NCBI GenBank assembly: GCA_017477185.1
Contig: JAFUXF010000026.1
Span: 2,215 to 66,214 of the forward strand
Source of the DNA: Alphaproteobacteria bacterium
GTDB lineage: Bacteria; Pseudomonadota; Alphaproteobacteria; RF32; CAG-239
Direction: 5' to 3'
DNA length: 64,000 nt
Each line of letters starts with the position of its first letter. Within the stretch, counting starts at the first letter, position 1. Below, piece after piece: positions 10,162 to 54,328 of this stretch. The position numbers were made by a program, and so were the translations under genes. The notes under the pieces are model-generated. The model was not told the DNA's origin. It did no database searches and worked only from the letters and a program-made list of their open reading frames with translations.

Positions 10162-10186
10162 ATTCCATCCAGCCTTTAATTTTTTA

Positions 10187-14380: not shown

Positions 14381-15960
14381 TGCGTTCTAACCACGCTGCA
14401 AAATACACCATTTCTTCCTAATCGACTGCAGACATCATCACCTTCCTGCAACGTCTCAATCGGACCAACTCTTAAATGAAACAGTTCTTTTCCTTGTCCG
14501 TCAGCAGCCGCATCAACCGAGAAAAATGGTTCATATTGTTTTAATGTATCAGAATATTTTTTAGATAACGAGCCCCATAAGCTCTCTAAATTACTGACAT
14601 TACTATCTGTCCCCAACTCTATAGATATATTGCTGTTGTCTGCAAACATCAGTCCTTGTCCTTTACCTCCTCTGTTAGCATAACTGCCTTCCGGTGCATA
14701 ATTTCCGTCGTTTGTAATACGTTGCATATTGGCATAATCAAAATCCCCCTGATTATTTCCATATCCAGGACGATAAGTAATATTCACGCCACCGTTTGGA
14801 TTTTGGCTGTAATTTGATAAAACAAAATTTCCACTGCCACTTGACATATTGTCTCCACCACTATTATCACCCAATCCGCCATTCTTGCCTGGGATTGGGG
14901 CCGGAACTTGCCATTGATGTTCATCTAAATCTTTAGTAGTCGGTGCAAATTCTAATCCGGCTTCATCAGAACGTCTCAATTTCAGACAAACCATTCTCTT
15001 ACCATTCCGCATAACCATATCGCCTATACCCTCAACGATGATTAAGCGATTATTGGGTCCTTTTGTTCTAAAGCCAACCGGCACTTCCAGACGTTCAACA
15101 ATCAGCGTTACGATAGGGCGTTGCGTCATTGTCAATGATTTTTCCCCTAAATCAATATAAGTAAAAATATCATCTCGCCATACTCGTTCCGGTGCAATGA
15201 CAACATCCTCAGGATTTGGAATATAGACTTCAACATCAAACCTAAATTTTGAAGCATCTAGAGGAATAGATTTTATCCAATCTTCTCTTTGAAAACTTTT
15301 AGTAAATAAAGAATCGACAGATTTATTCGGCCCACCTCTATAGGTTGAGGCATTTACTCCGCTGTGTCCACCAATACTTCCCGCAGAAACTCCTGCACCA
15401 CGAGATCCTGACGGACCGTCAATCACATCAACATCGATAATTGAGTTTGTCAGTCGTTCTGTGTTTACCCCTTCACTCTTCAGATAAAAGACATACTTAT
15501 TACCGCTTCTGCCAAAGATCACAATATTTGTATCCACTCCAACATTTGCTCCTTTTTTAGGATAAAGGAGCACTGTGTTCGGACCGGAAATTTGTCCGTC
15601 AAAGCTCGAGCTATCACCTAAATAAATATCCTCAACTAATTCCCAACTCGGAAAATTAAGTAAAGTAATCATTCCTTCTCTCACACGAATTGGCAATATT
15701 AAATCCGGAGACCAATAATATTTGGAATAAGCAGGCTTGCTTTGCCCTTCTCCCAAGTTTTGCAACGGATCAAGCCACGCACTTTGCGTCATTCCCAAAG
15801 CATTAAAGCCGGCATATCCCATATTCATAGGCATGTACATTCCCTGACTCTGATCAGCATTCTGATCCAAGCTCCCCATAGTTGCCTGAGAGCGTGCATT
15901 TTGAGTACCGCTCATTATGATGATAATTAAAAATAAAATTCGACCAAATGCCTTAATCAT
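14377..15960 (-). CDS. virB9: enlarged VirB9-like protein (527 aa): signal peptide, VirB9 N-domain, G/N-rich spacer, possible C-terminal SPOR-like domain
   Basis: The VirB9 N-domain pattern is present (GDSSSFDGQISGPNTVLLYPKKGANVGVDTNIVIFGRSGNKYVFYLKS, resembling 'gn.l.vKP...TNL.V.Td.r.Y.F.L'). The C-terminal ...GKELFHLRVGPIETLQEGDDVCSRLGRNGVFCSVV resembles the yRVrvGPf...A..lC..L...G..C.vv end of SPOR domains. The size is comparable to CagX-type VirB9 proteins. Confidence 0.7.
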   Translation of the reverse strand: MIKAFGRILFLIIIIMSGTQNARSQATMGSLDQNADQSQGMYMPMNMGYAGFNALGMTQSAWLDPLQNLGEGQSKPAYSKYYWSPDLILPIRVREGMITLLNFPSWELVEDIYLGDSSSFDGQISGPNTVLLYPKKGANVGVDTNIVIFGRSGNKYVFYLKSEGVNTERLTNSIIDVDVIDGPSGSRGAGVSAGSIGGHSGVNASTYRGGPNKSVDSLFTKSFQREDWIKSIPLDASKFRFDVEVYIPNPEDVVIAPERVWRDDIFTYIDLGEKSLTMTQRPIVTLIVERLEVPVGFRTKGPNNRLIIVEGIGDMVMRNGKRMVCLKLRRSDEAGLEFAPTTKDLDEHQWQVPAPIPGKNGGLGDNSGGDNMSSGSGNFVLSNYSQNPNGGVNITYRPGYGNNQGDFDYANMQRITNDGNYAPEGSYANRGGKGQGLMFADNSNISIELGTDSNVSNLESLWGSLSKKYSDTLKQYEPFFSVDAAADGQGKELFHLRVGPIETLQEGDDVCSRLGRNGVFCSVVRTQ

Positions 15961-15970
15961 TATTTTAACC

Positions 15971-16720
15971 TTATTTTGATTTATTACGCATTAAAGAATA
16001 TTGTACCACTGTAAATCCTACAGGATTATTCAAACGATCATTAAACTTGACAGATTTTCGGCGATAAACCACACGCAAAGATGCTGTCCAATAATTAATC
16101 TCCGGTGCAGATGATGACGGATACATATCTGTCGTTTCGTATTCTACTTGCCACAAACCGCGTCCCAGCTCATTAACTGTCAAAATATTAACTCTTCGCT
16201 GTAATCCTCTTTGTCGAACCAAATCTAAAGCTCGCCTAGCCGTTTTATTAATAAACTCATCATATACAGCAGATGATGACATTTCCTGAATTGGACCACC
16301 CGGAAGCCAGCGAACTTCCATTTCTGCCTCATCATTAACAATTGTGCTGCGTTGGAGAACATAACTTCGAACAAATGTTTCCGTAATGGATTTGTTTTCG
16401 ACTAAATCTCCACTGTAAGGTACAATATTATATATTTGTTCTTCTTTATTTTGAAATGTCAGCAAATACGGCTCAACTCTAAACAAAGGAATAACCTGAG
16501 CAATAGCAAGTAACAAAACAATATTACAGCATAAACTGACAACCATGATAACAGCAAAAGCACGCGCTGTCCACAAATAACGTTTTTCGTTATTATTTGC
16601 AACAAACACATTTTCTTGTTGAGGACGGCGCATTTGAGAACGCGAACTATTGTTCAGATTTGCTCTGCCTATCAGTTTCTGCTCGCTATTATTACCAAGC
16701 TGATTTGCCATCTGTCGCAT
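15971..16720 (-). CDS. virB8: VirB8-family protein (paralogue 2; bitopic, NTF2-like)
   Basis: Single TM (FAVIMVVSLCCNIVLLLAIAQVIPLF) after a cytoplasmic N-terminus. The C-terminal signature NNPVGFTVVQYS matches the VirB8 NPxGFxVxxY motif. Confidence 0.8.
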   Translation of the reverse strand: MRQMANQLGNNSEQKLIGRANLNNSSRSQMRRPQQENVFVANNNEKRYLWTARAFAVIMVVSLCCNIVLLLAIAQVIPLFRVEPYLLTFQNKEEQIYNIVPYSGDLVENKSITETFVRSYVLQRSTIVNDEAEMEVRWLPGGPIQEMSSSAVYDEFINKTARRALDLVRQRGLQRRVNILTVNELGRGLWQVEYETTDMYPSSSAPEINYWTASLRVVYRRKSVKFNDRLNNPVGFTVVQYSLMRNKSK

Positions 16721-16726
16721 TTCCTA

Positions 16727-16930
16727 TTAAATTGTTTCAATAAACCAATCCGGCAAATCTTTAGGTAATTCAATATGCATACATGCACAAGGTGATAATT
16801 TTAATTCATCCACACCTTTACCCACGCCTACGGGTTCAGCCTCATAATATGACCCAAAAATACCACAGGAGGGCAACATTATGACTGCAACTACCATTAT
16901 AATTTTTTTTATCATTCTGAGATACCTCAT
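16727..16930 (-). CDS. small lipoprotein (67 aa), VirB7-like by position between the two virB8 genes
   Basis: Signal peptide MIKKIIMVVAVIMLPSC-G with Cys at the cleavage position, and a short mature part. Its position corresponds to VirB7 in T4SS operons. Confidence 0.4.
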   Translation of the reverse strand: MRYLRMIKKIIMVVAVIMLPSCGIFGSYYEAEPVGVGKGVDELKLSPCACMHIELPKDLPDWFIETI

Positions 16931-17013
16931 AATTAGTATACTAAACCAGCTAGTTTGAGGTTATACTCTTTTAAATTAAATGTCTAACATCATCTGAGAA
17001 TATCAACAAAGAA

Positions 17014-17769
17014 TTATAAACCCTCTACTTGAGTTTGCGAATAACGAAGAACTGTAAAGCCTAACGGATTGATAAGACGCATACCGGAAAACATACGCTC
17101 TTTAATAAATACTGCCGTGATTGAAGCTGTCCAATACCGAACTGTCATTAACATATCTTGCGAAACATTATTTGTTTCTTTAGGGCTCAGCATATAAGTC
17201 TTAAAATCAACTTTCCAAACGGGACTATGTTGTCCACCGATACGGCGTACCGCAATAATTTCTGTTTCTTGTACAATGCCCTTACCGATAACATCATTCC
17301 ATAGTTTATCTCTGTAAACTGAAAATTCATCAAAAACATATGGGGAAGACAGAAAATTTACCATACCTCCCGGCAACCATCTGTTACGCATTTCTATTTC
17401 ATCGTTTATAATGGTATTGCGCAACTCTATATATTGGCGAATATACATATCGACCAATTTATCTCTTGAGGGCATATTTATCCCTATGCTTTCTGCACGC
17501 ACAATACCTTCACTGCTATCCTGAGATACTACTAAAAACGGCTTTACCGTTACTTGCGGGGCTAGTCGAAAAAGGGCTAGTGATGCGCTGGTAAATAAGG
17601 ACAAAGACAATATGGTTAAAAAAATGAAAAAACGCACTAACCACATATAATACTTGAGTTTAAAGTTTTTTTCATCTTGTTCATATTGTTCGATAAATTC
17701 CAGACGGTGTTCTCTATTTCCATCTGTAATTTCTAAAATTCGACTTCCTTCTAGTTTATTTACAGCCAT
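17014..17769 (-). CDS. virB8: VirB8-family protein (paralogue 1)
   Basis: TM FFIFLTILSLSLFTSASLALF. C-terminal INPLGFTVLRYS VirB8 signature. Clearly diverged from the second copy, so both are likely functional. Confidence 0.8.
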   Translation of the reverse strand: MAVNKLEGSRILEITDGNREHRLEFIEQYEQDEKNFKLKYYMWLVRFFIFLTILSLSLFTSASLALFRLAPQVTVKPFLVVSQDSSEGIVRAESIGINMPSRDKLVDMYIRQYIELRNTIINDEIEMRNRWLPGGMVNFLSSPYVFDEFSVYRDKLWNDVIGKGIVQETEIIAVRRIGGQHSPVWKVDFKTYMLSPKETNNVSQDMLMTVRYWTASITAVFIKERMFSGMRLINPLGFTVLRYSQTQVEGL

Positions 17770-17778
17770 TTTCCTTCC

Positions 17779-20700
17779 CTAAAAATTGCCTGCGAGTTGT
17801 GAACAATAGATATTACCGATCTGATGCAACATACGCTTGAATTCCTTATCTGCCTCTTGTTTTTGTTTCGCTAAAACTTGACGATTTGTCTTTTCCGATT
17901 TTATTTTTTCCTCTAAATCAGCATCTGCTTTTGAGTTATCTGATACAACAGTATATGCTCCGTCATCTTTTTGGAAGACTTTTATCAAATCATTTATTTT
18001 CTGTATTCTTTGTTCAATAATCTCATTGTTATTATTTTGAAATGTCTTGACTTGAGAGGCGGCTGTAGAGATTAATTGGTTACGATACCTCATCAAAGTT
18101 TCATATGCTAATTTGTAGTCATCTTCATTAGCTAAATCAAAATCTTGTGCCGGCGTAAAACCGATTTTAGTAAATAATTCATATAAAGGTTTTTTGGCTT
18201 TTTCAATTTCAAACTGCATTTCAGCTTTGTTTTGACGACTCTGTTGCTCGTAATCTGCTCGCTTTAAGAAATCTCCGATTTGATTTTGGTGTAAACTGGC
18301 AATATCAAATAAAATATCTTTTTGCTCTATTTCTGTATTCGAATCTTTGTGGACATCTGACAGGCGTTGGAAAACATCTTTTGCCAATGCGTTATATTTT
18401 AAGCCATTATCGTATGTTAATATGTGTCCCAGCTCACTCATATTTTGTGAGGGTTTAAACTCACTTAATGATTTTACTTCAGCTATACCTGAAACATCAT
18501 CTGCAAGATTTTTCACGGTATAGTACAATCCTTTTCCTGATACTTCAATATCATAGCATGGATTGCATCCTTCCGCTTCAAGTTTTTTCCAGATTTGAGT
18601 TTCTTTTTCTTTTTGCTCTGTATCAAACATTCTGGCTGTAGCCGTGTATAATCTGTATCTATCCCCTGTTGAAGTAACCAAAAAATTTTTGTATAAACAC
18701 GGAAACATTCCGCCACTGGCCAGTCTTTCAACAGAAGGACGAATGACCGTACTTAAATCTATTTCTTTTTCAACATACGCCGGTTTTCTTAAAATATATT
18801 TCCAAATTTCGGGAACAAACGCGAGGTTGTTCAGTACACCTTCTGATGTAACCAATCCTGATGCACTTCTTGGAATATTGTCATATGTTCCGTAATCGAA
18901 ATAAAGGGTTTCCCTTATCGTCGGCAACGGAACATCCGGAACGGACTTCGGGGCACGGAAATCGCGGTGTTTACCTTCATTACTAACAAAATATTCAACA
19001 TCCGGTTCTTGACAATAATTATGCAAGCAGGCTTCTTCTACAATATATTTTTGGTAAATTGCTCGCAATAAAGACATAATCTCCCCATATGAGCTGTATG
19101 CACCGATATTTGAACTGTATTCAGTCAGTTCTTTTGTCGGCAATTCTCTCAGCTTGTTCATCAATTGCTTATGAATATCAACAACTTGTCTATGATTGTT
19201 GGGATTGTATAAACTATCTCCCATTGCATAAAGCTGATCAATTGTATCTTTTACCAATTCCTCTGCCACACCTCTTGTATCTACAACCAACTGATTAGCA
19301 TTGTTAAGTATTTCCGGTAAGCTAAAAAGATAGGGCGTTTCATCATCAATCATTGTCGGAACGCTAAAATGACTTTGAAAATATGAACTTAAATCCAAAT
19401 TCTTTACTTGGTCAATGGTATCAGCATACCTTTTTTCTTCATCTTGAATTTTATTATCATTTGCAACTGTTATCGCATTAGCCTCATTGGCATATGCATC
19501 ATTAACTTTTTGAATAGATAAAGGTATCTCCGTTTCTAATTTTGTTTTAAGTATATTTAATTGAGCTGTTGTTTCTTCTATCTTTTGATTAACATCAGCT
19601 AACTTTTGTTTTAGGGCTAATACTTTTTCTCGGTTTTCGCTCAAAACATTTTCCGTTTCGGCAATTGCATCAGGTTCATCATACTCTGTTTCAGTTATTT
19701 GAGTCTCGCTTCTTATATAAGTTTTGACAGATGAATCTTCATCTGCTTTTGGTGCTGTTTGCGAAAGCTGAGCATTTACAAGTTGTTGTGTTTGGCGATA
19801 AATTCCTTGTTCTATAAAGTAGCTTTGCTTTTCATTATCTGCCGGCAATTCTTTTTGATAAGTTTCCGTTGAGTTTTCTATCGCCTTAATACCAAGCCCA
19901 TCTTTTTCTTTTTGCAGTAATGTTTTTATTTTAGTCTCTGCACCGGATATTATTGTTTCAGCTTGTAAAATTTCTTCTTCCAGATCTTGTCTTTGAATAT
20001 TTAATGCATCTAACTGAGCTTGACTTCGATTTATTTTATTTACGAGTGTTTCTTTTTCTCGCTCAATATTAGCTAATTGCTGCTCTTTCCTATTATATAA
20101 AGCGTTTAATTTTTCTTTTTCTTCCGCAACCAGAGCATCAACATTATTGGTTATATTATTATTTTCCCTTAAAACTTTATCTTGCAAAAGTGCTAAAGCA
20201 TCAGCATTGTGTTGTTTTTCATCATAGTCCTCAACTAAATTATTCAGTTGTTCGGCAACTTTTAATGTTACTTCCAGGACATTAATTGCATTTAAGCGTT
20301 GTATGATTTTATCGTATTTTCCTTCTATATACTGATTGTAATAAGATTGCGTATCTTTCCATACGGGATAGGCTTTTTTTATTCTTCCCCACTTGCCGTT
20401 TATACCATTTTCTGCCTGATCCTTTGCTAGCATTTTGGCTGCTTCTGAACCGATATTCCATGCTAATTTTTCGCTGGCTTTGAGTTCTTCATCAACCTTC
20501 TTCTCTTTTGCTGCATTTTTAAAACCACCGCTTTTTTTATTAATTTGTGATTTAAGGCGGTCAGCTTGACTTAAATCAGAGCTATCAACCCCCTCCGTAG
20601 AAACGTTTAATTCACTAAAATCATCTGCTTCAGCAACAACTCCTGTATCTATTGCTTTTGCCACATTATATGCCTTTAGTGCCCAACCGGAAATTCCTTT

Positions 20701-21984
20701 ACGTTTTTCACTATTCGCAATTTGTTCATCCGATAATCCGCCATTCCACATCTGGTGCGGATTTTCGTACATTCCGCCAAAATAAGTTATAGCGCACTGT
20801 TCTGAATTTTTGAGAGCCTCTAAGGCTTTTGCATGTATCTTTTTAGCTTTATCATAATTGTTATATAGTTCTTGAATTGTCGACAACCCTTTGGTTTGAT
20901 TGTGAATTTCAATCGCTTTATTAAGTAAGGCTTGAGCTTTATTGATTTGTTCTATACTTGCTAAATTTTCACGGTTTGCAGCATAAGGCGTTTCCAGTTT
21001 GCTTTGAGAAGGAACAAAATTGACAGCTCTTTTGTACTTAGGTTTGGTTTCCTTTTTATTATTTTCGGTATTCTTCATAGTTGAGGCGTTAAGTTCTAGC
21101 TCTTGATTTTGTACAAGCGCGGCTTCAGGATTTTTCATTATTTGAGCAAACGACAATTTTTGTATCTGTTTAGTATATGTCGCCATTTTAATGGTTGCCT
21201 GTTCATTATTCCATGCATTTTCATCACTATCTTCCTCCGGCAACATCGGTTGTACCATACCTGAGCCGATAGCTTGAACGGCAATATATTGCGTTCGCAT
21301 TGCTTCTATTTCTTGAATAATTTTCAATAATGAGTTCATCGTTTCATAAGTATTGTAGGCATTTTTCCAAACGGCATTTTCATCCTGCTCCTCTTGCATA
21401 CCGTTTTTGCCCTCTTTGACAGCTGTTTCAAGTTCTGTAATTGATGTCTCAATTTCATCAAACTTTTTTTCTAATTCTCTGGTAGAAGCATAAAGCTCAA
21501 TGATGCTGTCTTGATAAAACTCAGTCGCCAAATCACGATAAGCCTGACAAATCATTTTATACTCTTCACGATCAGTTTTAGTACAATCTACAGGATACTG
21601 AAAGAACAGTTCATAAACAGCTTCCATAATGGAGGCTTTGTCGTAAATATCATATTTTTTTGATTCTTTAAATTCTTTTGTCCCCGGTAAAGGTTGCTTT
21701 TCCTTTTTTTTGAAAATGCCCCCCATAAATCCGGTAAATTTCCCTGTATATTTGCTGATTGTTGCTTTTGCTTGCTGATTGATGGTCTGCATATAAGCAC
21801 CAGCTTGAGCTGTTACATTCTGTATATTGACTGTTACGGTATCCATAAAAAAGGTTACATCACTGACAACATCTACAGTCGGCGTTAGGGGTCCGGGGGG
21901 GAGAAGAAACGCTCTAACCCCATGACTAAAACTGACGCATAAAACGGCAACAATCAGAAATATTTTTGCTTTAGTCAATTTCAT
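17779..21984 (-). CDS. secreted 1401-aa coiled-coil protein (signal peptide plus long heptad-rich helical regions), unknown T4SS-associated function
   Basis: N-terminal signal peptide MKLTKAKIFLIVAVLCVSFSHGVRA. It is rich in E/K/Q/L heptads and has no TM segments or enzymatic motifs. It occupies the slot between virB8 and the virB4-proximal genes. Confidence 0.6.
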   Translation of the reverse strand: MKLTKAKIFLIVAVLCVSFSHGVRAFLLPPGPLTPTVDVVSDVTFFMDTVTVNIQNVTAQAGAYMQTINQQAKATISKYTGKFTGFMGGIFKKKEKQPLPGTKEFKESKKYDIYDKASIMEAVYELFFQYPVDCTKTDREEYKMICQAYRDLATEFYQDSIIELYASTRELEKKFDEIETSITELETAVKEGKNGMQEEQDENAVWKNAYNTYETMNSLLKIIQEIEAMRTQYIAVQAIGSGMVQPMLPEEDSDENAWNNEQATIKMATYTKQIQKLSFAQIMKNPEAALVQNQELELNASTMKNTENNKKETKPKYKRAVNFVPSQSKLETPYAANRENLASIEQINKAQALLNKAIEIHNQTKGLSTIQELYNNYDKAKKIHAKALEALKNSEQCAITYFGGMYENPHQMWNGGLSDEQIANSEKRKGISGWALKAYNVAKAIDTGVVAEADDFSELNVSTEGVDSSDLSQADRLKSQINKKSGGFKNAAKEKKVDEELKASEKLAWNIGSEAAKMLAKDQAENGINGKWGRIKKAYPVWKDTQSYYNQYIEGKYDKIIQRLNAINVLEVTLKVAEQLNNLVEDYDEKQHNADALALLQDKVLRENNNITNNVDALVAEEKEKLNALYNRKEQQLANIEREKETLVNKINRSQAQLDALNIQRQDLEEEILQAETIISGAETKIKTLLQKEKDGLGIKAIENSTETYQKELPADNEKQSYFIEQGIYRQTQQLVNAQLSQTAPKADEDSSVKTYIRSETQITETEYDEPDAIAETENVLSENREKVLALKQKLADVNQKIEETTAQLNILKTKLETEIPLSIQKVNDAYANEANAITVANDNKIQDEEKRYADTIDQVKNLDLSSYFQSHFSVPTMIDDETPYLFSLPEILNNANQLVVDTRGVAEELVKDTIDQLYAMGDSLYNPNNHRQVVDIHKQLMNKLRELPTKELTEYSSNIGAYSSYGEIMSLLRAIYQKYIVEEACLHNYCQEPDVEYFVSNEGKHRDFRAPKSVPDVPLPTIRETLYFDYGTYDNIPRSASGLVTSEGVLNNLAFVPEIWKYILRKPAYVEKEIDLSTVIRPSVERLASGGMFPCLYKNFLVTSTGDRYRLYTATARMFDTEQKEKETQIWKKLEAEGCNPCYDIEVSGKGLYYTVKNLADDVSGIAEVKSLSEFKPSQNMSELGHILTYDNGLKYNALAKDVFQRLSDVHKDSNTEIEQKDILFDIASLHQNQIGDFLKRADYEQQSRQNKAEMQFEIEKAKKPLYELFTKIGFTPAQDFDLANEDDYKLAYETLMRYRNQLISTAASQVKTFQNNNNEIIEQRIQKINDLIKVFQKDDGAYTVVSDNSKADADLEEKIKSEKTNRQVLAKQKQEADKEFKRMLHQIGNIYCSQLAGNF

Positions 21985-21995
21985 GTTCAGCCTCC

Positions 21996-23645
21996 TTAAT
22001 ATCCAACGGCATTTGTTGCCGTATCTCCAAAATATTCACCGACACTGTTATCGCCGGTTGCATATTCAATAAAGGCTCCGGCAGCAGCTAAAATCGCCAA
22101 TCCTGCTGCAAGTCCTGCAAACCATCCCCAACTGATTCTTCCGCGAATCGCCAAAAATGCAATTCCAACTAAGCCGAAACCACTAATGATATACAAAATC
22201 GTTTTCACACTCCTAAATATATCAGCAAATTTACTCTTTGTGGTGGAAACAATATTTGTTGCAGTTACGGTTGATGCTGTGGTGCTACCAACTTTTGCGG
22301 CTGCCTCATTGGCTTTTAATTCTGCCGCTTGTTGCTTTAGGGCTTCTAATTTTTTTAGCAATCCTTTTTTGCTGTCTGAATAGAGGTAATCATCAATATT
22401 GAAAGCCGTCACATCTTTATCATAATTATTCAATTTCTTCGGCATATTTATCATGTCTTTAGATGTTGCCATTTTCATTTCTGCCGTTAGCAACCGCGCA
22501 AATTTGAGTAACCTCTTCATATTTTCTATTTTAAGCGGAATATCTATCATGAGTGCTGCCGGTGTCGTTTCAACAATTTGCGCATTGCTTTGCAAACTAT
22601 TTGCGTATTCGATATTTTTATCATCTTCGCTCATCTGCTGAACGGCTTGATAATAAACCTCTGCCGCATCATCTAAAAACTTGCCGCGCCGATAAGCCAT
22701 CAGTTTTTTATTCCCTTCAACAGAATCTTCTTCATTCTTTTTATAAAAATTTTTGGCAATCACTTCATTCATGGCTGATGCCGCATTGCCTGAAAACAGA
22801 TTACCAACGGCTCCCGAGTTCATTAAACTAAAAGGATCATCAACGTTTCCGACCATATTAAGTGCTTTGTCTTTAAGTTCATTTATTTTTTTCATCACGC
22901 CATTCGGACCGTTGAGGTTTTGTTCATATTCTTCTGTCAGCGCTTCAATGTCGTCTTCATACGTTGCATCAATCTTTTTTATTTTTGCCTGATTATCCGC
23001 AATTATTCCTTTGCAATAAGAAACTGCACTATTATCCGAACCATCATTCTTTTCTGCATTACTTATTATTTCTTCGCATTTTTCGATATTATCATTATAT
23101 GGTTTAACTTCTCTATCTCGAGCATCTTGTAAATCTTGTACCGTTTGGTTAAAACTGGTTTTAAGTTGTGTCAATTCTGTTTGTAAATTAACCAATTCCT
23201 GTGCATTTGCCATGTTTGCGGCGGTTCCGGCGGCTCCTGCCACGGCACCGGTTGCTGAATTGGTAAGATCAGTAACATTACCGGCAGCATCTCCGACAAT
23301 ACCGGTTGCACTTCCGGCAGCATCTTTAAGCCCTTGCGCTGATTTTTTCGCATCATTGACCGAAGATTTTACATCATTAACTGCAGATTTCACCTGCTCT
23401 ACTTCAGACTTGATTTCATCTATCTTGGCCATACCTTCTTTGACACCATCGACCAATTTTTGATACGTTTTCAGGTGCTCTAATTGTTTTTGTGCTTTAT
23501 CTACCGTGTTTCCAACTTGCTCTGTAACGCTTTTTAAAATTTCCCCAACAGAGCGAGAAGCATCCATTTTTAATGTCGCTTGAGCTGAAGAAATCCAAGA
23601 AAAACCAACAAGAATATATAAGATATATTTTATTTGTTTAATCAT
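21996..23645 (-). CDS. 549-aa protein: signal peptide, coiled-coil region, C-terminal pair of hydrophobic helices
   Basis: MIKQIKYILYILVGFSWISSAQA signal. The C-terminal ILYIISGFGLVGIAFLAIRGRISWGWFAGLAAGLAILAAAGAFIEYATG is a hydrophobic hairpin with a short basic loop. Overlaps the next gene by 8 nt. Confidence 0.55.
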   Translation of the reverse strand: MIKQIKYILYILVGFSWISSAQATLKMDASRSVGEILKSVTEQVGNTVDKAQKQLEHLKTYQKLVDGVKEGMAKIDEIKSEVEQVKSAVNDVKSSVNDAKKSAQGLKDAAGSATGIVGDAAGNVTDLTNSATGAVAGAAGTAANMANAQELVNLQTELTQLKTSFNQTVQDLQDARDREVKPYNDNIEKCEEIISNAEKNDGSDNSAVSYCKGIIADNQAKIKKIDATYEDDIEALTEEYEQNLNGPNGVMKKINELKDKALNMVGNVDDPFSLMNSGAVGNLFSGNAASAMNEVIAKNFYKKNEEDSVEGNKKLMAYRRGKFLDDAAEVYYQAVQQMSEDDKNIEYANSLQSNAQIVETTPAALMIDIPLKIENMKRLLKFARLLTAEMKMATSKDMINMPKKLNNYDKDVTAFNIDDYLYSDSKKGLLKKLEALKQQAAELKANEAAAKVGSTTASTVTATNIVSTTKSKFADIFRSVKTILYIISGFGLVGIAFLAIRGRISWGWFAGLAAGLAILAAAGAFIEYATGDNSVGEYFGDTATNAVGY

Positions 23646-24318
23646 TATGCGCCTCCTCAGATTCCTCTTGTTTTGCAGTCATATCGACCGTCAGCGTCTT
23701 GAGACTTTGTGTATATTGATATTCTTGCATCAGGCTTTCCAGCATATAAATTTTAGCCAAGCGATTGACGATATCTATGGCTTTGGCATTGACTTCCGCC
23801 GCCATTTGATTAGTGTCGGTCATATCATCATCACGAATTGTTTCTTTGAGAAGTTGGGTTCTGGAAGTGAATGCAAATGCGTATAATCTCGCTATTGAAT
23901 CGCGCATAGCTGCCTGTATAATTTCTTGATGTTGTTTAAAGGCTTCAGAATCATTCCCTTCTCCACTTTTGGGCAGTAATTTTTCTTGTGCTGCTTTGGC
24001 AATCTCCTCATTTGGAGCGTCTGTTAACGATGGGATTCCCTCTATTTGTGTTGCACCCAGTTCTTTTATTTTATCAACATCTAACGTTTGTATTGTACTT
24101 AATCCGCTTTCTGCTTTGTCTTTAATCTCTTTTGCTTTTTCAGAAGCATCCTTAAATTGATCCTTATATTCCTGAATTTTTTCCTGATAAGTCGTTGCTT
24201 TCTCTTGAACTGTTTGCAATAAATTTTGAATTTTTTGAATAGCATCAATATCTGCCTTTGCCGAAAATGACGGTATCAACAGCATGGCAATAAATAGTAA
24301 TAGAAATTGTTTATTCAT
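23638..24318 (-). CDS. secreted 226-aa helical protein, possible VirB5-like minor pilus/tip component
   Basis: Signal peptide MNKQFLLLFIAMLLIPSFSAKA. The size, all-helical K/E/Q-rich composition and position downstream of virB4 resemble VirB5. No diagnostic motif was found. Confidence 0.45.
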   Translation of the reverse strand: MNKQFLLLFIAMLLIPSFSAKADIDAIQKIQNLLQTVQEKATTYQEKIQEYKDQFKDASEKAKEIKDKAESGLSTIQTLDVDKIKELGATQIEGIPSLTDAPNEEIAKAAQEKLLPKSGEGNDSEAFKQHQEIIQAAMRDSIARLYAFAFTSRTQLLKETIRDDDMTDTNQMAAEVNAKAIDIVNRLAKIYMLESLMQEYQYTQSLKTLTVDMTAKQEESEEAHND

Positions 24319-24322
24319 TTTC

Positions 24323-26653
24323 CTATCCTTCCTCTTTGCCTGTATCTTCAGCTTTAGGCGTTAATTGCCCAAGGTTTTCCAAACTTGATGTTGCTATTCT
24401 GGCTGCGTAAATTTGTACAATTTCATCAATTATTTTTTGCATTTCATTATCTGTCTTGAACAAAGCATTAAAATTGGTCCGTTCATCCTGACTATTAGTT
24501 ATATTTTCTTTAATGACATCTAATTCCTCATCATACTTGGCGGTTTTAACTTTTTGGTATAAGGATTTTCCTAAAATATTTAACATATCTTGATATTTAA
24601 TATTATCGATAAAATTCTTCCCGACTTCCGCTTTAGTAAAATCTTTATCATTGGCTTCCTTTACCGTTTGATAATAGCAATCTTTGACCATACGAATATT
24701 GTCGGCGTCTAATTTTATCAAACATTTTTTGGCAAAATTCTCCGGAAGAACAGGATACTCTATTGAGGCGTTTGCCTCCTCTGATTCTTTAACATTATCA
24801 TGGAGACCGCGAATCACTGAATAATCGTAATCACCTTTAATTTCACCTAAGCCAATTTCAGTTTCTTCATCAAGCGTTTCGGGTTTAACCGCTCCGATAT
24901 TGCCAATTGCGGTATTAACAAGAGATGAGGTAAATATTCGGCGAATCCTGTTAAGCAAATACAGACTCTCTTTATTTGTTATGGCAATGCTTGCAATAGC
25001 ATCATTGGTTGCTCCGTCTTTTCTGATTTTATCGCTATCTTCAATATATTTTGTCAGGACATTAGCAAAATAACTGCCGGAATCGGCTTTATCCTTCCAT
25101 GCTTCTGTCAAACCATAGACATTTTGTTCTGCGGTAATTACAGAATAGATACCTCTTGCTTCTTCTGCAATGGTGGCATCTTCATCATTCATTTTTTTTA
25201 GTAGTATATTAGCACAATCCTGAATAACTTTCATGTCTGTTAAATCTTCTGCTTTAAAACAGCATTCTTTAGCTAAGGTTTCTGAAGTAATAATAATTTC
25301 TCCATCTTTGCTGTTTTGTATGGCATTATTATAGTCACTGCATTGCGTTACATCGGCAAATTTCAAGGTCGCTTGATAATTTATTCTTGCGCTGCTTTGC
25401 CTAACATATTCTCCATCATCAAACAAAAGGCTTTCTTGTTGGGGAGTACCAAAAGCACGACGATTAATCTGAATACTCTCGGTAGCACCCTTTATTGTAT
25501 CAACATCATCTGCACTTACAGAACTTGATTTAGAAACATCTTTAAGCTTTTCTAGTGAACGTGTTGCGCCTGATACTGCTCTACTTTCATCTGTACTCTC
25601 AGAGCTTGCTTTCGTGGTATTTTCAAGATTTTCTAAAAGAGGGATTGTATCAGATAGGGTTGCCGGTTCAACTTCTTTGGCATTCGGAGCGACAAACGCT
25701 TTGCGTCCGGCTATCGGCTCTTCATAAACTTTACTATCTGAATTGATGATATCTGCTTCATCTAACGTACTGATATCCTTTAAGGTTTCAATATCACCTG
25801 TGGCAACAGCCTTTTTCAATGTTTTATCAAGAGAGGAAACTCCGGCACTACTACCTTGCGCAGAAGAATTAGAAACGACTTGCTCGACAGAAGATGATTT
25901 TAGTGTTGTCGGTTGAGAAGAAACATCACTATTTTGAGATGCTGAAACTGTATTTTGCGGCGTAAAGGCTACTCGCCCTATCGTAGATGCTTCTGTCTCA
26001 GACACAGGCATTTGTGTTTCCGGTTCCGGCATTACCGGAGACGCGGGTGTCACCTGTTCTGTCTTTGGAATATACTCCTCTGCCGCATTAACAGTGCTGT
26101 TAATGGTACTTTTGACATTATTTACTTTATCTTTTGCATCAGCAACAGCTTGCCCCGCCAAATTCACGGCGCCGGAAGCTGCACTTTTTGCATCCTCATA
26201 AGTGGATTTAGCATCGTTGTATGCGGATTTTGCTTCGTCTATTTTAGACGTTACCTCTTTTTTAGCGTCTTCAACCTTCTTTTTGTATTCATCAAATTTT
26301 GCTTTTTTCTTCTCGTATTCTTTTTTGGCGTCTTCAACCTTTTTCTTGATTTTATCAAGTTTTTCTTTGGCTTTTTTCAGTTTATCCGCTTTTTTCTTAA
26401 CTTCTTGTACTTTATCCAAATTAAATTTGCTCATACTGGCTTTGGCATCACCTATCGCAGAATTAATCGATGTGACTGTCTTACTTTCAAGAATCTGTGT
26501 TTTATATTGATCAATCTTTTGCATAATTGATTGTGCATTTTGAAAAATTGCGGAACAATCAAATGTCGGCCACAGTGCTTGTGCGGAGGACTGAAATAAC
26601 GCAGAGCAGATAATACCCATAAGCATAATTTTGACATATTTTTTTAAGTGCAT
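24323..26653 (-). CDS. secreted ~776-aa protein: signal peptide, K/E/D-rich coiled coil with internal duplication (KKKVEDAKKE x2), Ser/Thr-rich linker, C-terminal globular domain
   Basis: The likely start is the internal ATG at 26651..26653 (MHLKKYVKIMLMGIICSALFQSSAQA). The ORF track starts 21 codons upstream. No TM segments. It lies immediately downstream of virB4. Confidence 0.6.
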   Translation of the reverse strand: MHLKKYVKIMLMGIICSALFQSSAQALWPTFDCSAIFQNAQSIMQKIDQYKTQILESKTVTSINSAIGDAKASMSKFNLDKVQEVKKKADKLKKAKEKLDKIKKKVEDAKKEYEKKKAKFDEYKKKVEDAKKEVTSKIDEAKSAYNDAKSTYEDAKSAASGAVNLAGQAVADAKDKVNNVKSTINSTVNAAEEYIPKTEQVTPASPVMPEPETQMPVSETEASTIGRVAFTPQNTVSASQNSDVSSQPTTLKSSSVEQVVSNSSAQGSSAGVSSLDKTLKKAVATGDIETLKDISTLDEADIINSDSKVYEEPIAGRKAFVAPNAKEVEPATLSDTIPLLENLENTTKASSESTDESRAVSGATRSLEKLKDVSKSSSVSADDVDTIKGATESIQINRRAFGTPQQESLLFDDGEYVRQSSARINYQATLKFADVTQCSDYNNAIQNSKDGEIIITSETLAKECCFKAEDLTDMKVIQDCANILLKKMNDEDATIAEEARGIYSVITAEQNVYGLTEAWKDKADSGSYFANVLTKYIEDSDKIRKDGATNDAIASIAITNKESLYLLNRIRRIFTSSLVNTAIGNIGAVKPETLDEETEIGLGEIKGDYDYSVIRGLHDNVKESEEANASIEYPVLPENFAKKCLIKLDADNIRMVKDCYYQTVKEANDKDFTKAEVGKNFIDNIKYQDMLNILGKSLYQKVKTAKYDEELDVIKENITNSQDERTNFNALFKTDNEMQKIIDEIVQIYAARIATSSLENLGQLTPKAEDTGKEEG

Positions 26654-26728
26654 AGTACCCTCCTTTGAGAAGCCTTGATTATTTATTCTAACAAAAATTT
26701 GCATGAGGATAAACAATATTCTGCTTCA

Positions 26729-29218
26729 TTACGCAATATTTAAATATTTTGTAACAAAGTTTTCTTCTCCATACTCCTTTATTAAATCTTCAACCAACAA
26801 TACATTTTTACGGCTGGAGTTATATAGTTTCAAATACGGTCCGAGACCACTTAAATCAACATCCAAAATAACAGATTCACCTGTTGCCGGACGTGATAGT
26901 AGGATTGCATAAGGAAATTCGCGATACGATTTGCCGAAAATAAAGTCGATTTCTCGTTGCGTTAAATTCCAATTAGCATAATCTTCCGGCATAGCTTGCG
27001 GATTTCGGAAGAAAATAATCGTTTGGCATTGTCCGCGGATAACCTCACCAACACCTAATTTATCGATAATATTGGGTTGTTGAAAAGCACATAAATACGC
27101 CTGTCGTTTTTTACGACCTTCTTGCAAACCAATCATAAAATAATCTCGGAACATAGGGTGTTTGAGCATTGGCGCGGTTTCATCGATCATGATTAAAGAA
27201 GGAACACCTGTATCACCAACTTCTGACTGTATACGGTGCATAATATAACTGATAACAGCCGGTGCCAGTGTTTCATCTTCAAAAATATGGGTAAAATCAA
27301 AAGCAGTAAACCTTTTTGAACTTAAATCAAGACTATCGGTATCTGCATTAAAAATATTTCCATACTGCTCAGGATTAATCCACCGAAACAATTCTCTCCG
27401 CATATTACCGGTTGGCGAAAAACAGCTTTTGTAAAGGTTTTTCAATATACGTTCTTCCGGTTTAAGATAATCAAATGCCGTGGTTACCGCTCGACCGATT
27501 TCTCTTTCAGACAACGCGTCATCAACCATAGTAATGGCTTTTAACCAACGGCGTAAAAAGGCTCTGTTATTCGGATTATTTTCACAGTCAAACGGATTTA
27601 AGGAAACATTTTTTTCATCCCCGTCAAAACCGATATAAGCCCCTCGAACAGCGCGCGTAAAAATTTCAGCACCACGGTGACGATCAAAGAAAAACACCTT
27701 CAAATCCTTATGGCGCATAGCCTGCCCGGCTAAAAATGTCAGTAACGTCGTCTTACCTTGTCCGGTCGGACCAATAATACAACAGTGCGCAACAGCAGCG
27801 TCTTCGCTTGAAACGTGAAATTGGAATCGATAGGCTGAGCCTGACGTTGTTCGAAATACAGAAATAGCTCCTTCCCCCCAATCACTTTTACTAAAACCTT
27901 CTGCCGGTCGGTCAAAACACACAGCCATCGCTACTACTCTTGATAAATAGCGGTATGTCCTCGGATATGCATCATATGTCGGGAACTGATTAAAGAATGC
28001 TGCCTGCGCAACCCATCCCTCTCTGACCGGCGTAACACTAAACAAGCGGCATATACGTTGGACTTCGCTTTCAGCAAAATCTATCTCCTCCATGTTATCA
28101 CCGCGAATAATGATATCCATGGCATATTCAGTTAAAGCCTGATAATCTGCATCGCTATCTTCAATTGTTGATAAAACTTCACTGTATTGCGCCACCACAT
28201 CTGGAGAAAAGCTCGTTGAGGTTGCCATGCGTTGTTGTTGTATCAGCAAGGCTCGAGCCTTCGGCTTAAACATTGGCTTAATATTGTGCAACAGCGTTAG
28301 CTCACAATCAATTGACAGCAGACTGGCAATCATATTTTCATCCATATAATCCCCTGGAGCACGAATCCCCATGACAATGGCAAACTTTTCTTTATTTCCG
28401 GAGAAAAATTTAATAACACCTTCTTCCTCCGTAAAATGAATGTGGTCAGTTGTCAGCATTTCATTGAGTTGATATCCTTCTGCATTACCTACTTTCGGAT
28501 TTGGTTTACCTATCGGACTGCAAATACGGCTAAACACCGAAAAAGGACTATCTTCTGCCTTACTGTCTTCGGTTTCAAATAAAGGTTTTATTCCATAGTC
28601 ATTTAATGTTGCCATTAGAGATTGAGACGTGTAGTTCAGGTCTTTTAAGGCATCCGTTCTATCGGCAACGGAAAGAATTATGTAGTGCGTATTACTATAA
28701 ACTCTATCTAGAGTATTGTGCCATGTTTCTGATACTTGTTGTAAAATTGCGCTTCCAAAATCACCTTTATCGGTCTCCATTTCTATACGATCTCGCAACG
28801 TTAAAACACGACAAGTTACCTGAAGTTCGCCCATACTGTCTATCCACAGTTTACGCGCCTCCATCATAGACATAACCTTTTCTTCAGTCACGAAACTTAA
28901 ATCTATGCCATCTACCTTAAAAATTCGAGCAAAAGAACCATTATAGCAACGAATCGTTATCCCGTCCGCCATCAATTTTGTAAATGGCAAAAAATCCGCA
29001 ACGCGTGATTCTTGTGGTTGAGGCAAAATATATCGGCCAAATTTTGTTACCCAAACACCAGCAAATGCGGCTGCCGAAATAAATCCGATAACCGCTACAA
29101 TAACTTCCACATTGCTCAAGCCTTGAACAAAAATGGATACAAAATCAAATTCATCAGGGCGCAAATTTATTCCCCTTACTTTTATACAGATTGTTGCTGA
29201 TAACCCGACATTGACCAT
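26729..29218 (-). CDS. virB4: VirB4-family T4SS ATPase
   Basis: Walker A motif GPTGQGKTTLLTFLAGQA. Walker B context SLIMIDETAPML. The 829-aa ORF overlaps virB3 by 65 nt. Its first ~80 aa include a hydrophobic helix, so either the start is internal (e.g. MADGITIRC at ~28972) or the protein carries a VirB3-like N-terminal extension. Confidence 0.9.
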   Translation of the reverse strand: MVNVGLSATICIKVRGINLRPDEFDFVSIFVQGLSNVEVIVAVIGFISAAAFAGVWVTKFGRYILPQPQESRVADFLPFTKLMADGITIRCYNGSFARIFKVDGIDLSFVTEEKVMSMMEARKLWIDSMGELQVTCRVLTLRDRIEMETDKGDFGSAILQQVSETWHNTLDRVYSNTHYIILSVADRTDALKDLNYTSQSLMATLNDYGIKPLFETEDSKAEDSPFSVFSRICSPIGKPNPKVGNAEGYQLNEMLTTDHIHFTEEEGVIKFFSGNKEKFAIVMGIRAPGDYMDENMIASLLSIDCELTLLHNIKPMFKPKARALLIQQQRMATSTSFSPDVVAQYSEVLSTIEDSDADYQALTEYAMDIIIRGDNMEEIDFAESEVQRICRLFSVTPVREGWVAQAAFFNQFPTYDAYPRTYRYLSRVVAMAVCFDRPAEGFSKSDWGEGAISVFRTTSGSAYRFQFHVSSEDAAVAHCCIIGPTGQGKTTLLTFLAGQAMRHKDLKVFFFDRHRGAEIFTRAVRGAYIGFDGDEKNVSLNPFDCENNPNNRAFLRRWLKAITMVDDALSEREIGRAVTTAFDYLKPEERILKNLYKSCFSPTGNMRRELFRWINPEQYGNIFNADTDSLDLSSKRFTAFDFTHIFEDETLAPAVISYIMHRIQSEVGDTGVPSLIMIDETAPMLKHPMFRDYFMIGLQEGRKKRQAYLCAFQQPNIIDKLGVGEVIRGQCQTIIFFRNPQAMPEDYANWNLTQREIDFIFGKSYREFPYAILLSRPATGESVILDVDLSGLGPYLKLYNSSRKNVLLVEDLIKEYGEENFVTKYLNIA

Positions 29219-29447
29219 AGGCCTGTATCATGGTTGATATGTGCGGATCTTTAACACCCATCGCAATGACAATAATATGACCTATAGCTATAGTCGCTAT
29301 AAAAAATATTGGGTTTAAATTCCATATTCCCATACACATAAACATTATCGGGAACTGAATTCCTAAATTGAGTAACGTAGGCAAAAAGGGACCCCATAAT
29401 ATTTTTGGAGGATTTGCCACCGCTTTATAGATCATTTCCCTCATCAC
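29154..29447 (-). CDS. virB3: VirB3-family small inner-membrane protein
   Basis: 97 aa with two hydrophobic helices (LNLGIQFPIMFMCMGIW / IFFIATIAIGHIIVIAMGV). Sits immediately upstream of and overlapping virB4. Confidence 0.75.
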   Translation of the reverse strand: MMREMIYKAVANPPKILWGPFLPTLLNLGIQFPIMFMCMGIWNLNPIFFIATIAIGHIIVIAMGVKDPHISTMIQAYGQCRVISNNLYKSKGNKFAP

Positions 29448-29530: not shown

Positions 29531-30070
29531 CTATTCAAAAGACCACATTATATTGTTTTTCTCTTGGCAATATTGTTTGGCCTGCTTACGACTTAACGGT
29601 AATCCCTTATTTCCCCAACTAAAATCATATGTTCCCTTATCATTTTGAATACTCATTGAAATTAAGCCCAGTTTATCTTGCTCTTTTCCCTGAAAAATTG
29701 CTAATTCAATGCATTCTTTTTTATCTAATTCTCGATAAGTAATAACAAAACTTCTTGCCCCCGGCATCACTTGTGTCCCGTCACCATCAGCACCGATTAC
29801 GACTTCTTTGCCAAGAGTATTAAAGATTTTATTATCTTTCAGCTCTCCTTGATAAAACTTTTGCTCTATTGCAACTGTATTGTTCAGTCCCCAGTAATCC
29901 GGACGATTGCGGTAGTACATCCGAACTTTCTCGGTCATTTTTATCAATTCTTTGTCTGCAGCAATAATCTCTGAAGGAGGACGTTTAAAACTGAAGATTA
30001 CACCCAACAAAATGATAAAAAATAATGAAAACAGCCATATATACAAAATCAATTTTTCTTTATTTATCAT
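29531..30070 (-). CDS. small N-terminally anchored protein with two C-terminal Cys, non-canonical pilin-like candidate (position of R64 pilS)
   Basis: The ATG at 30068..30070 lies 1 nt after the stop of the GspF-like gene. It gives MINKEK + LILYIWLFSLFFIILLGVIFSF, a short polar leader plus ~22-aa hydrophobic helix, followed by a ~150-aa domain with Cys...Cys ~50 aa apart. It lacks the G/F/E5 prepilin peptidase site, so calling it a pilin is tentative. Confidence 0.35.
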   Translation of the reverse strand: MINKEKLILYIWLFSLFFIILLGVIFSFKRPPSEIIAADKELIKMTEKVRMYYRNRPDYWGLNNTVAIEQKFYQGELKDNKIFNTLGKEVVIGADGDGTQVMPGARSFVITYRELDKKECIELAIFQGKEQDKLGLISMSIQNDKGTYDFSWGNKGLPLSRKQAKQYCQEKNNIMWSFE

Positions 30071-30071
30071 G

Positions 30072-31187: not shown

Positions 31188-31198
31188 GTGTTTTTTCC

Positions 31199-32875: not shown

Positions 32876-32881
32876 TTGTCA

Positions 32882-35603: not shown

Positions 35604-35622
35604 CGGTTTTCCTCTTTTATTC

Positions 35623-37290: not shown

Positions 37291-37291
37291 T

Positions 37292-38005: not shown

Positions 38006-38012
38006 TTACAGC

Positions 38013-54296: not shown

Positions 54297-54328
54297 GGAG
54301 CCGTGCCGAAAACGCGGCTCCTTTTATT
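54297..54328. terminator. bidirectional rho-independent terminator between the convergent XRE gene and yejB
   Basis: ggagccg-tgccgaaaacg-cggctcc followed by ttttattt, with A-run upstream. Confidence 0.6.

Follow-up and report, generated by a model that had tools for sequence, protein, structure and literature searches.

Probable VirB5-like proteins, one of them joined to a VirB2 pilin module, in the virB4-virB8 interval of a type IV secretion locus from a gut alphaproteobacterial lineage

The window analysed here, i.e. the whole stretch of 64,000 nucleotides (nt) taken from contig JAFUXF010000026.1 of an alphaproteobacterium, carries a chromosomal type IV secretion system (T4SS) of the VirB type. 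Four consecutive minus-strand open reading frames (ORFs) lie between virB4 and the first of two virB8 genes, encoding proteins of 797, 226, 549 and 1401 amino acids (aa) that we call p797, p226, p549 and p1401. We consider that this interval holds an expanded VirB5/TrbJ set, that p549 carries the VirB2 pilin, and that VirB6 is encoded elsewhere; taken jointly, we give this reading a probability of about 0.6. In T4SSs of the VirB type VirB5 contributes to the periplasmic stalk and the tip of the pilus, and the position directly after virB4 is the canonical one for VirB5/TrbJ. A preliminary description had placed four secreted coiled-coil proteins in the slots of VirB6, VirB2 and VirB1; the proteins look instead like an expansion of the VirB5 slot. 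The four ORFs that it listed, and their Sec-type N-terminal signals ending in AxA, are confirmed. Their features are as follows, all on the minus strand.

24323-26716: p797, 797 aa from a TTG codon (793 aa according to gene callers; likely start M22, nt 26653)
p797 aa 22-47: Sec signal
p797 aa 48 to about 120: TrbJ/VirB5-like mature N-terminus, 'LWPTFD...'
p797 aa 100-214: K/E-rich coiled coil
p797 aa 225-440 (nt 25397-26044): S/T/P-rich linker, S+T = 25%
p797 aa 441-797: conserved C-terminal domain
23638-24318: p226, 226 aa; Sec signal at aa 1-22, then a VirB5-sized all-helical protein with the mature N-terminus 'DIDAIQ'
21996-23645: p549, 549 aa; Sec signal at aa 1-23, helical N-domain of ~430 aa, linker, C-terminal VirB2 pilin module
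p549, about aa 240-363: VirB5-like stretch
21999-22283: VirB2/TrbC pilin module of p549, aa 455-549, from PF04956 and a family hidden Markov model (HMM)
22146-22202: first transmembrane (TM) helix of the module, aa 482-500
22068-22124: second TM helix, aa 508-526
17779-21984: p1401, 1401 aa; Sec signal at aa 1-25
21274-21894: VirB5-like region of p1401, aa 31-237, beginning 'PLTPTVD'
p1401 to about aa 600: conserved N-domain; aa 601-869: variable coiled-coil middle
17782-19377: conserved C-domain of p1401, aa 870-1401

Related systems were collected by a VirB4-based scan with one genome per species, giving 61 loci with VirB4 at 64-92% identity. Nearly all are labelled uncultured Alphaproteobacteria and come from human, ruminant, rodent and bird guts, and they include 'Ca. 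Scatocola' (Ca., Candidatus) and 'uncultured Azospirillum'. The VirB cluster is syntenic in all 61, and the number and order of the genes between virB4 and virB8 are conserved. The four proteins are only 18-56% identical across species, compared with the 64-92% of VirB4.

The first assignment concerns the C-terminus of p549. Hydrophobic segments were located by the Kyte-Doolittle method (19-residue window, threshold 1.6). Beyond the signal peptide there are none in p797, p226 and p1401, and p549 has exactly two, at its end; this is the two-helix hairpin that had been described for one of the proteins. Whole p549 matches the TrbC/VirB2 family PF04956 with E = 4.7e-4, and aa 441-549 alone give E = 2.8e-5 and 24.7 bits, which is under the cutoff of 27.9. 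Against a profile of the stand-alone pilins from related loci p549 has an E-value of 1.9e-32, and it is the sole pilin-like sequence that this profile finds in the window and its flanks. The earlier statement that no pilin is recognisable is therefore not upheld. The C-terminus is 40-65% identical to stand-alone pilins of 111-145 aa, 53 of which were aligned with it together with one other fusion protein. PF04956 is matched by 51 of the 54 aligned pilin members (the C-termini of the two fusion proteins included), the best with E = 3.5e-13. The stand-alone pilins of the relatives have a signal peptide and two hydrophobic helices, and are encoded just upstream of virB3. In p549 the two helices are joined by the short positively charged loop 'AIRGRISW', as for a TrbC/VirB2 pilin. 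On these sequence grounds the C-terminal hairpin of p549 is a TrbC/VirB2 pilin module.

The fusion is unlike the usual precursor. VirB2 is made as a small protein (~100-150 aa) with its leader directly before the pilin and its gene upstream of virB3, as are the stand-alone pilins of the relatives, while in p549 ~430 residues lie between the Sec signal and the pilin module and the gene is downstream of virB4. A fusion of the same type occurs in three other lineages, P0048 (82% identity), P0049 (67%) and L050 (53%). Both fusion and linker are kept there; this is not an artefact of assembly, and an identical p549 is found on 12 contigs of gut-type metagenome assemblies. A homolog search using the concatenated sequences of p226 and p549 as query returned three orthologs of p549 only. 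Most of the p549 orthologs of the relatives do not have the VirB2 anchor. The pilin profile found nothing among the sequences of the PDB. One observation weighs against this part of the reading, namely that the junction 'AAKVGSTTASTVTATNIV' contains no AxA site, and no processing site is evident there.

The topology predicted for p549 is that of unassembled VirB2. The N-domain would be periplasmic, the two helices would span the inner membrane with the RGR loop in the cytoplasm, and the C-terminus would return to the periplasm. The protein might then be processed to release a pilin, be polymerised so that its large domain is exposed, or act as an anchor or adaptor.

The likeness to VirB5 begins with the mature N-termini. 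The p797, p226 and p549 families are linked through their N-terminal parts by BLAST and iterative HMM searches. The mature N-terminal motif is 'PTxD' in the p797 family, 'ADID' in p226 and 'PPGPxTPTxD' in p1401, i.e. of the P-[TV]-x-D or x-I-D type, like the 'IPVID' of plasmid VirB5 proteins. For comparison of profiles we used the proteins encoded directly after virB4 on three sister megaplasmids, which have the closest VirB4 in the plasmid collection (35-38% identity). These are pMVF16-3 of Microvirga sp. VF16 (NZ_CP069357.1), the plasmid of Erythrobacter aureus YH-07 (NZ_CP031358.1) and p1 of Sphingosinicella sp. BN140058 (NZ_CP035502.1). Only the Erythrobacter member (251 aa, starting 'AGIPVIDP') was shown to score above the cutoff of PF07996 (E = 6.8e-7), and the Microvirga VirB5 is tied to it by BLAST (E = 1e-13).

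When aligned using hhalign, this VirB5 profile matched all four families. For aa 31-237 of p1401 the probability was 90.9% (E = 1.1e-6, 180 columns), and the alignment starts exactly at the N-terminal motif. The values were 84-94% over 205-228 columns for p226 in a local run, 89-97% over 42-70 columns for the N-terminus of p797, and 86% over 124-190 columns for aa 240-363 of p549. Protein X, a soluble protein of the sister plasmids, gave 96% over 175-185 columns. Reversed sequences gave no more than 0.6%, with 0.2% in the case of the p797 N-terminus, and two other secreted domain families from the same loci no more than 1.4%. In size and position p797 has the place of VirB5 but not its length, p226 has the length and is the second gene, and p549 and p1401 are far larger. 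Taking sequence and position together, the four proteins are likely to be paralogs of the VirB5 family; the lineage has three to seven VirB5-like genes per locus.

A number of observations count against this assignment. The evidence from the profile is moderate because the reference contains three sequences, and helical or coiled-coil composition can inflate profile scores. With a 47-sequence alignment of p226 the probability was 56% over 90 columns. PF07996 matches none of the four proteins, nor any of the 47 members of the p226 family. The match of p797 to the NCBIfam TrbJ model NF010448 is weak (E = 7e-4 to 1e-4, ~20 bits against a cutoff of 225) and does not recur, the 50 N-termini of the p797 family giving NCBIfam results dominated by coiled-coil matches of the SMC/Rad50 type. 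Searches of PDB sequences with profiles of the p797 N-terminus, p226, VirB5 and the p1401 N-domain returned coiled-coil or heptad noise only, so that even a true VirB5 profile finds no solved VirB5 by sequence. The AlphaFold2 (AF2) model of p226 (47 homologs) is unreliable, with a pLDDT of 48 and a pTM of 0.28. It has three long helices (aa 20-62, 123-158 and 169-223), and because the model is unusable the result of its Foldseek search is meaningless.

A crude heptad scan covered 18% of p797, 42% of p226, 22% of p549 and 13% of p1401, compared with 0% in VirB4 and VirB9, and p1401 has conserved domains; the description of all four as dominated by K/E/Q heptad coiled coils was thus overstated. 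The S/T-rich linker that had been noted in one of them is that of p797. The two conserved domains of p1401 carry invariant C, W, G and P residues. An AF2 model of its C-domain has a pLDDT of 80 and a predicted alpha/beta core, and its best fold match in the PDB was not below E = 0.6. p1401 has homologs in 63 loci if repeated samples of the strain of the window are included. The family comprises 277 cluster representatives at 50% identity, nearly all of 1100-1850 aa, and no Pfam domain was found in any member (46 homologs and the cluster representatives). The gene is present in every locus, immediately before virB8.

We suggest that each of the four proteins consists of a Sec signal, a VirB5-like helical region and an extension of its own. 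On this proposal p226 would be close to a minimal VirB5, and p1401 would have a VirB5-like N-terminus followed by about 1150 further residues. The extension of p797 would comprise the coiled coil, the S/T-rich linker and the C-terminal domain, and that of p549 the only VirB2-type pilin module of the system. Once exported by Sec the four could form or decorate a periplasmic stalk, a tip or a fibre.

The third part of the reading concerns VirB6. The topology scan gave at most two segments in any of the four proteins. PF04610 (TrbL/VirB6) has no match at E < 0.1 in any of them, and hhalign of a canonical VirB6 (Pc_352 of Ca. Paracaedimonas) against all four families gave probabilities of no more than 0.3%. 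Thus the absence of a multi-TM VirB6 profile stands as first described, and no polytopic VirB6 lies between virB4 and virB8; an inner-membrane channel component appears to be missing from the locus. Among the ORFs in the six frames of the window, only the T2SSF gene and an ABC permease have at least four hydrophobic segments. The latter is the six-TM ORF at 54328-55425, which was considered as a VirB6 and rejected. Nor does any SLT (VirB1) domain occur in the proteins scanned, the four included, in agreement with the earlier statement that no VirB1 transglycosylase precedes virB3. The window and its two 10-kb flanks make up 84 kb, and no VirD4, relaxase or VirB6 was found among the ORFs examined there, ten small flank ORFs lying outside the scan. 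For VirB6 the absence extends to the relatives, with no PF04610 match or polytopic protein within 10 kb of virB4 in 60 of the 61 related species.

VirB6-like genes do occur in this group, outside the main operon. All 347,485 bp of Sphingosinicella p1 were scanned, and ~25 kb from its virB operon, 1 kb from an SLT transglycosylase, is the gene of a 441-aa six-TM protein that matches the Paracaedimonas VirB6 with E = 7.7e-7 and PF04610 with E = 4.2e-5. Using this protein as query, a VirB6-like protein of 739 aa was found in the gut relative L039 (PF04610, E = 2.6e-4). The protein has five TM segments in addition to a signal peptide, a Cys-rich N-domain and a G/A/K-rich tail, and its gene precedes virB3 by 3 kb, with three housekeeping genes (XerC, aroK and a ROK gene) in between. 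A metagenome scan added two homologs, in L083 and L084 (42-47% identity, 6-7 TM segments), in divergent orientation beside a type IVb pilus operon; the proteins of the three gut relatives are of 616-760 aa. In the plasmids of Ca. Paracaedimonas, the next outgroup (VirB4 31% identity), a six-TM VirB6 follows VirB5 (PF04610, E = 6.7e-5). At first the clade in its entirety, sister conjugative plasmids included, seemed to be without VirB6; we rejected this because of the off-operon genes in Sphingosinicella p1 and then in L039, L083 and L084.

The locus L084 (JGI Ga0247611_10000515, 185-22130) has the chromosomal flanks of the window, the pilus operon and a VirB6-like gene encoding 760 aa. It has no virB3-virB11 within 22 kb, which weakens the tie of its VirB6-like gene to a T4SS. 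Either the T4SS has been lost or moved there, or the gene is not tied to it. This counts against a split system, as does the fact that the VirB6 of the window's own genome was not found in 84 kb. A profile made from the L039 protein and the two metagenome homologs had no match in the window, in either of its flanks or in the remaining 60 loci.

The off-operon VirB6/TrbL genes of the relatives and of the sister plasmid make a split system the likeliest reading, and the earlier suggestion that VirB6 is encoded elsewhere, as in other split systems, gains from Sphingosinicella p1, L039 and the two metagenome loci. VirB6 is absent from the locus and, judging from these comparisons, probably encoded elsewhere in the genome of the window. 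It would then not have been replaced. Most simply, VirB6 would as a rule be encoded outside the main operon in this T4SS clade, as VirB1 also is in the plasmid.

Alternatively, VirB6 might be dispensable or replaced, the VirB5-like proteins building both the stalk and the platform for pilus assembly, for which R388 uses a VirB6 pentamer, with p549 and p1401 as the main parts. The lack of any polytopic protein or PF04610 match in 84 kb, and near virB4 in 60 of 61 species, is as this would predict, and the VirB6 slot of the sister plasmids is filled by protein X (422-453 aa), which is soluble and VirB5-like. The conservation of p1401 directly before virB8 in every locus is also consistent with such a role. 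Moreover the VirB6 pentamer of R388 is anchored in the membrane by two helices only, with its bulk in the periplasm (PMC12857230). Against this are the six-TM TrbL/VirB6-like protein encoded next to an SLT gene in Sphingosinicella p1, the VirB6-like proteins that three gut relatives encode near the superlocus, and the failure of the four families to align with a canonical VirB6 profile. The anchor of p549 is clearly VirB2 by sequence and is absent from most orthologs, and VirB6 is reported to be conserved in all T4SSs (PMC12857230). We therefore regard replacement as unlikely. A particular form of it is decidedly unlikely, in which the clade builds stalk and pilus platform without a VirB6 pentamer, p549 (or the large proteins with internal hairpins of the relatives) anchors and nucleates the fibre together with p1401, and the off-operon 'VirB6-like' genes belong to something else, such as the type IVb pilus whose operon adjoins the gene in L084.

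The four proteins might on the other hand not be structural, but substrates or effectors exported by Sec, or released adhesins, that leave through the T4SS. Pertussis toxin reaches the periplasm by Sec and then passes out through the Ptl system, which lacks VirD4. All four proteins have Sec signals and no VirD4 was seen in 84 kb, they diverge rapidly relative to the core components, and they are large and modular, an S/T-rich linker and a C-domain without a match in the PDB being among their parts. Two-step secretion is documented in VirD4-less systems (PMC12857230). This explanation is nonetheless improbable, given the similarity to the VirB5 profile with clean controls, the number and order of the genes kept in 61 species with VirB5 and X as positional equivalents in the sister plasmids, and the covalent joining of one of the four to a pilin; nor was any toxin or enzyme domain detected in them. 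Of the two roles first proposed for the giants, that of tip or fibre proteins fits the VirB5-like profile similarity, while no positive evidence was obtained for that of secreted effectors.

Least probable is that the VirB5 similarity is an artefact of signal peptides and helical Q/K/E-rich composition, the pilin module being the sole true T4SS part and the rest unrelated coiled-coil proteins: the PF07996 result for the p226 family, the coiled-coil noise in PDB and NCBIfam searches, the drop to 56% with a deeper p226 alignment and the three-sequence reference all speak for it, but the reversed controls and the other secreted low-complexity domains of the same loci reached at most 1.4%, the p1401 and p226 alignments begin at the mature N-terminal motif and run the full length of VirB5 (180-228 columns), and the position directly after virB4 is that of VirB5/TrbJ.

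Returning to the preferred reading, in which p549 carries the VirB2 pilin of an expanded VirB5 set, the gene order of the relatives suggests how the fusion may have arisen. Stand-alone VirB2 pilins lie upstream of virB3 in about 45 loci, i.e. most of the 61 related genomes. They occur as two to four tandem paralogs, of which the third is often a protein of 570-1800 aa with an embedded pilin hairpin, so that fusion of VirB2 to large domains is a recurrent habit of the lineage. A protein of 681 aa in L028 has TrbC at its N-terminus (E = 2.8e-9). In L008, L014, L037 and other loci the hairpin of the third 'pilin' is N-terminal or in mid-protein. These large proteins were also tried as VirB5-like candidates and rejected, with hhalign probabilities of no more than 1.4%.

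Throughout the lineage a type IVb pilus operon adjoins the VirB cluster. In 42 loci it is transcribed away from the pilin-virB3-virB4 operon; in seven, the window and its closest relatives, both run in the same direction. In these seven the gene of the PilS-like pilin abuts virB3 and the stand-alone VirB2 genes are gone; in the window the type IVb pilin gene is directly upstream of virB3. We note that in this clade a type IVb pilin gene stands exactly at the usual place of virB2. Within the clade the fused pilin is confined to the sub-lineage of the window and to L050. In this clade the pilus operon was inverted onto virB3, with loss of the stand-alone pilin genes from that place, and in this species and three others the pilin persists as a C-terminal fusion on a protein of the p549 family. 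Four close relatives (L006, L007, L041 and L056) weigh against so simple a history, having neither the fusion nor a pilin within 22 kb.

The array as a whole is on the minus strand, and in the order of transcription comprises the type IVb pilus-like operon, virB3, virB4, the four ORFs, virB8a, a 67-aa lipoprotein gene, virB8b, virB9, p1397, virB10 and a virB11-like ATPase gene. The members other than the four ORFs are these.

29531-39707, minus: type IVb pilus-like operon (p564, TcpQ, secretin, PilO, p473, T2SSE, T2SSF, PilS-like pilin)
29154-29447, minus: virB3-like gene; weak match to PF05101 (E = 0.009), homologous to VirB3 of the sister plasmids (E = 7e-6 to 1e-10)
26729-29218, minus: virB4; PF03135 (E = 1.5e-14), TIGR00929 (E = 6.4e-112)
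17014-17769, minus: virB8a; PF04335 (E = 7.6e-15 and 7.6e-21 for the two virB8 genes)
16727-16930, minus: p67, VirB7-like lipoprotein of 67 aa, with homologs among the lipoproteins of the Erythrobacter (E = 4e-13) and Microvirga (E = 1e-9) plasmids
15971-16720, minus: virB8b; PF04335 match
14377-15960, minus: virB9; CagX (PF03524) plus SPOR
10187-14380, minus: p1397, beta-flower repeat protein of 1397 aa with a TM segment, from domain matches
3913-10254, minus: giant virB10, 2113 aa; TM segment, beta-flower/DUF3659/RHS repeats, TrbI C-terminus
2931-3899, minus: virB11-like ATPase, from domain matches

The two virB8 genes are diverged paralogs on either side of p67. The C-terminus of VirB9 is a SPOR peptidoglycan-binding domain (PF05036, E = 3.8e-4), and the ORF of p1397, which comes first, overlaps virB10 by 68 nt. 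A plus-strand ORF at 25955-26530 (191 aa, three hydrophobic segments) lies antisense within p797 and is probably spurious. Housekeeping genes (cmk, rpsA, an ABC transporter, RmuC, accA/accD) make up what remains of the window, and the flanks too are housekeeping.

There is variation between strains. In L002, which is of the same strain group, the p797 ortholog (6690-9071) is split into ORFs of 454 and 303 aa, and the p1401 ortholog (11410-15591) has 1393 aa instead of 1401, i.e. these genes vary at the level of strains. In L067 six further genes without a Pfam match follow virB11 (10001-17439), a region of which the window has just 404-2824. Among their products are a protein of 562 aa that is very acidic and repeats 'EEYEWEYV', a 416-aa lipoprotein, and two Cys-rich secreted paralogs of 592 and 209 aa that have in common 'CQIGDIYY.DDTC...PIGVVYD'.

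The lack of VirD4, the fast-evolving surface parts and the pairing with a type IVb pilus fit an apparatus for contact or adhesion, judged by analogy. The chromosomal T4SS, in which no VirD4 was seen, might act jointly with the type IVb pilus when cells make contact or adhere. Searches of the literature gave no description of it. If the preferred reading is correct, a lineage of uncultured gut Alphaproteobacteria comprising at least 61 species would have an unusually designed T4SS on the chromosome, in permanent association with a type IVb pilus. Its surface parts would be expanded, with VirB5-family proteins of up to about 1800 aa, fusions of VirB2 to large domains, and a giant repeat-bearing VirB10. 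In the current model of pilus biogenesis a VirB5 pentamer nucleates polymerisation of VirB2 on a VirB6 platform, and a covalent VirB5-like-VirB2 protein would be a natural experiment for that model. If VirB6 is kept outside the operon, T4SS genes 'missing' from loci in metagenome-assembled genomes should not be read as absent. The hosts of the sister plasmids (Erythrobacter, Sphingosinicella and Microvirga) are cultured, so that both the protein X that takes the VirB6 slot and the off-operon VirB6 could be tested there directly.

The system can be compared with several that are known. The sister megaplasmids have the same order of genes, i.e. virB2, virB3, virB4, virB5, a soluble VirB5-like protein, a lipoprotein and virB8-virB11, with homologous lipoprotein, VirB3 and VirB8, and as in the window there is no polytopic VirB6 in the operon. 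They differ in encoding VirD4 together with a MobA relaxase, and conjugation is presumably their function. Each has one VirB2 of 111-117 aa, one VirB5 of 251-273 aa and one X protein, a VirB10 of normal size and a single VirB8, without a pilin fusion or the giants of 797 and 1401 aa. Like the window, Sphingosinicella p1 has T2SSE and T2SSF genes. The Sphingosinicella and Erythrobacter plasmids are of 347-408 kb, and besides its separate islet of SLT and VirB6 genes p1 encodes its own dnaE, dnaN, ligase, ribonucleotide reductase, RecA and many methyltransferases.

The IncI1 plasmid R64 also couples a type IVb pilus operon (PilO, secretin, T2SSE, T2SSF and PilS-type pilin, with PF06864 and PF08805 matched here) to a T4SS. 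Its thin pilus (PilL-PilV) promotes contact in liquid. The T4SS of R64 is of I-type (Dot/Icm-like), conjugative and on a plasmid, whereas that of the window is VirB-type and chromosomal, with no VirD4 found. The Cag system of Helicobacter pylori resembles the window in its giant repeat-containing VirB10 (recalling CagY) and CagX-type VirB9. It has several diverged VirB5-like surface proteins (CagL, CagI and CagH), to which, as to other Cag proteins, the four proteins have no detectable sequence relation. Cag differs in possessing VirD4 (Cag-beta), VirB6 (CagW) and the stand-alone pilin CagC, and the repeats of the window are of the beta-flower/RHS type.

In the rvh system of Rickettsiales five VirB6 paralogs follow virB4, there is no VirB5, and the components are dispersed in scattered islets (PMC2653234). 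It shares with the window an alphaproteobacterial host, a duplicated VirB8, and virB3-virB4 followed by a run of large paralogous genes. It is in effect a mirror image, with hydrophobic VirB6 paralogs where the window has four VirB5-like non-membrane proteins and no VirB6 in the locus.

In function the system would resemble the Trw system of Bartonella, which is VirD4-less. Trw has the surface components VirB2 and VirB5 in several copies of variable sequence, and a role in adhesion rather than translocation has been proposed for it (PMC12857230). Like Trw, the system described here is alphaproteobacterial, chromosomal and VirB-type. It has no coupling protein or relaxase in the 84 kb, and VirB2 and VirB5 are amplified and variable in the lineage, so that it falls in the Trw-like class by these features. 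The Trw copies were reportedly described by Seubert et al. in 2003 as tandem duplicates of normal-sized genes, a duplicated VirB6 included. The window locus by contrast is without VirB6 and coupled to a type IVb pilus, and its paralogs are highly diverged, with different large extensions, one of them being fused to the pilin.

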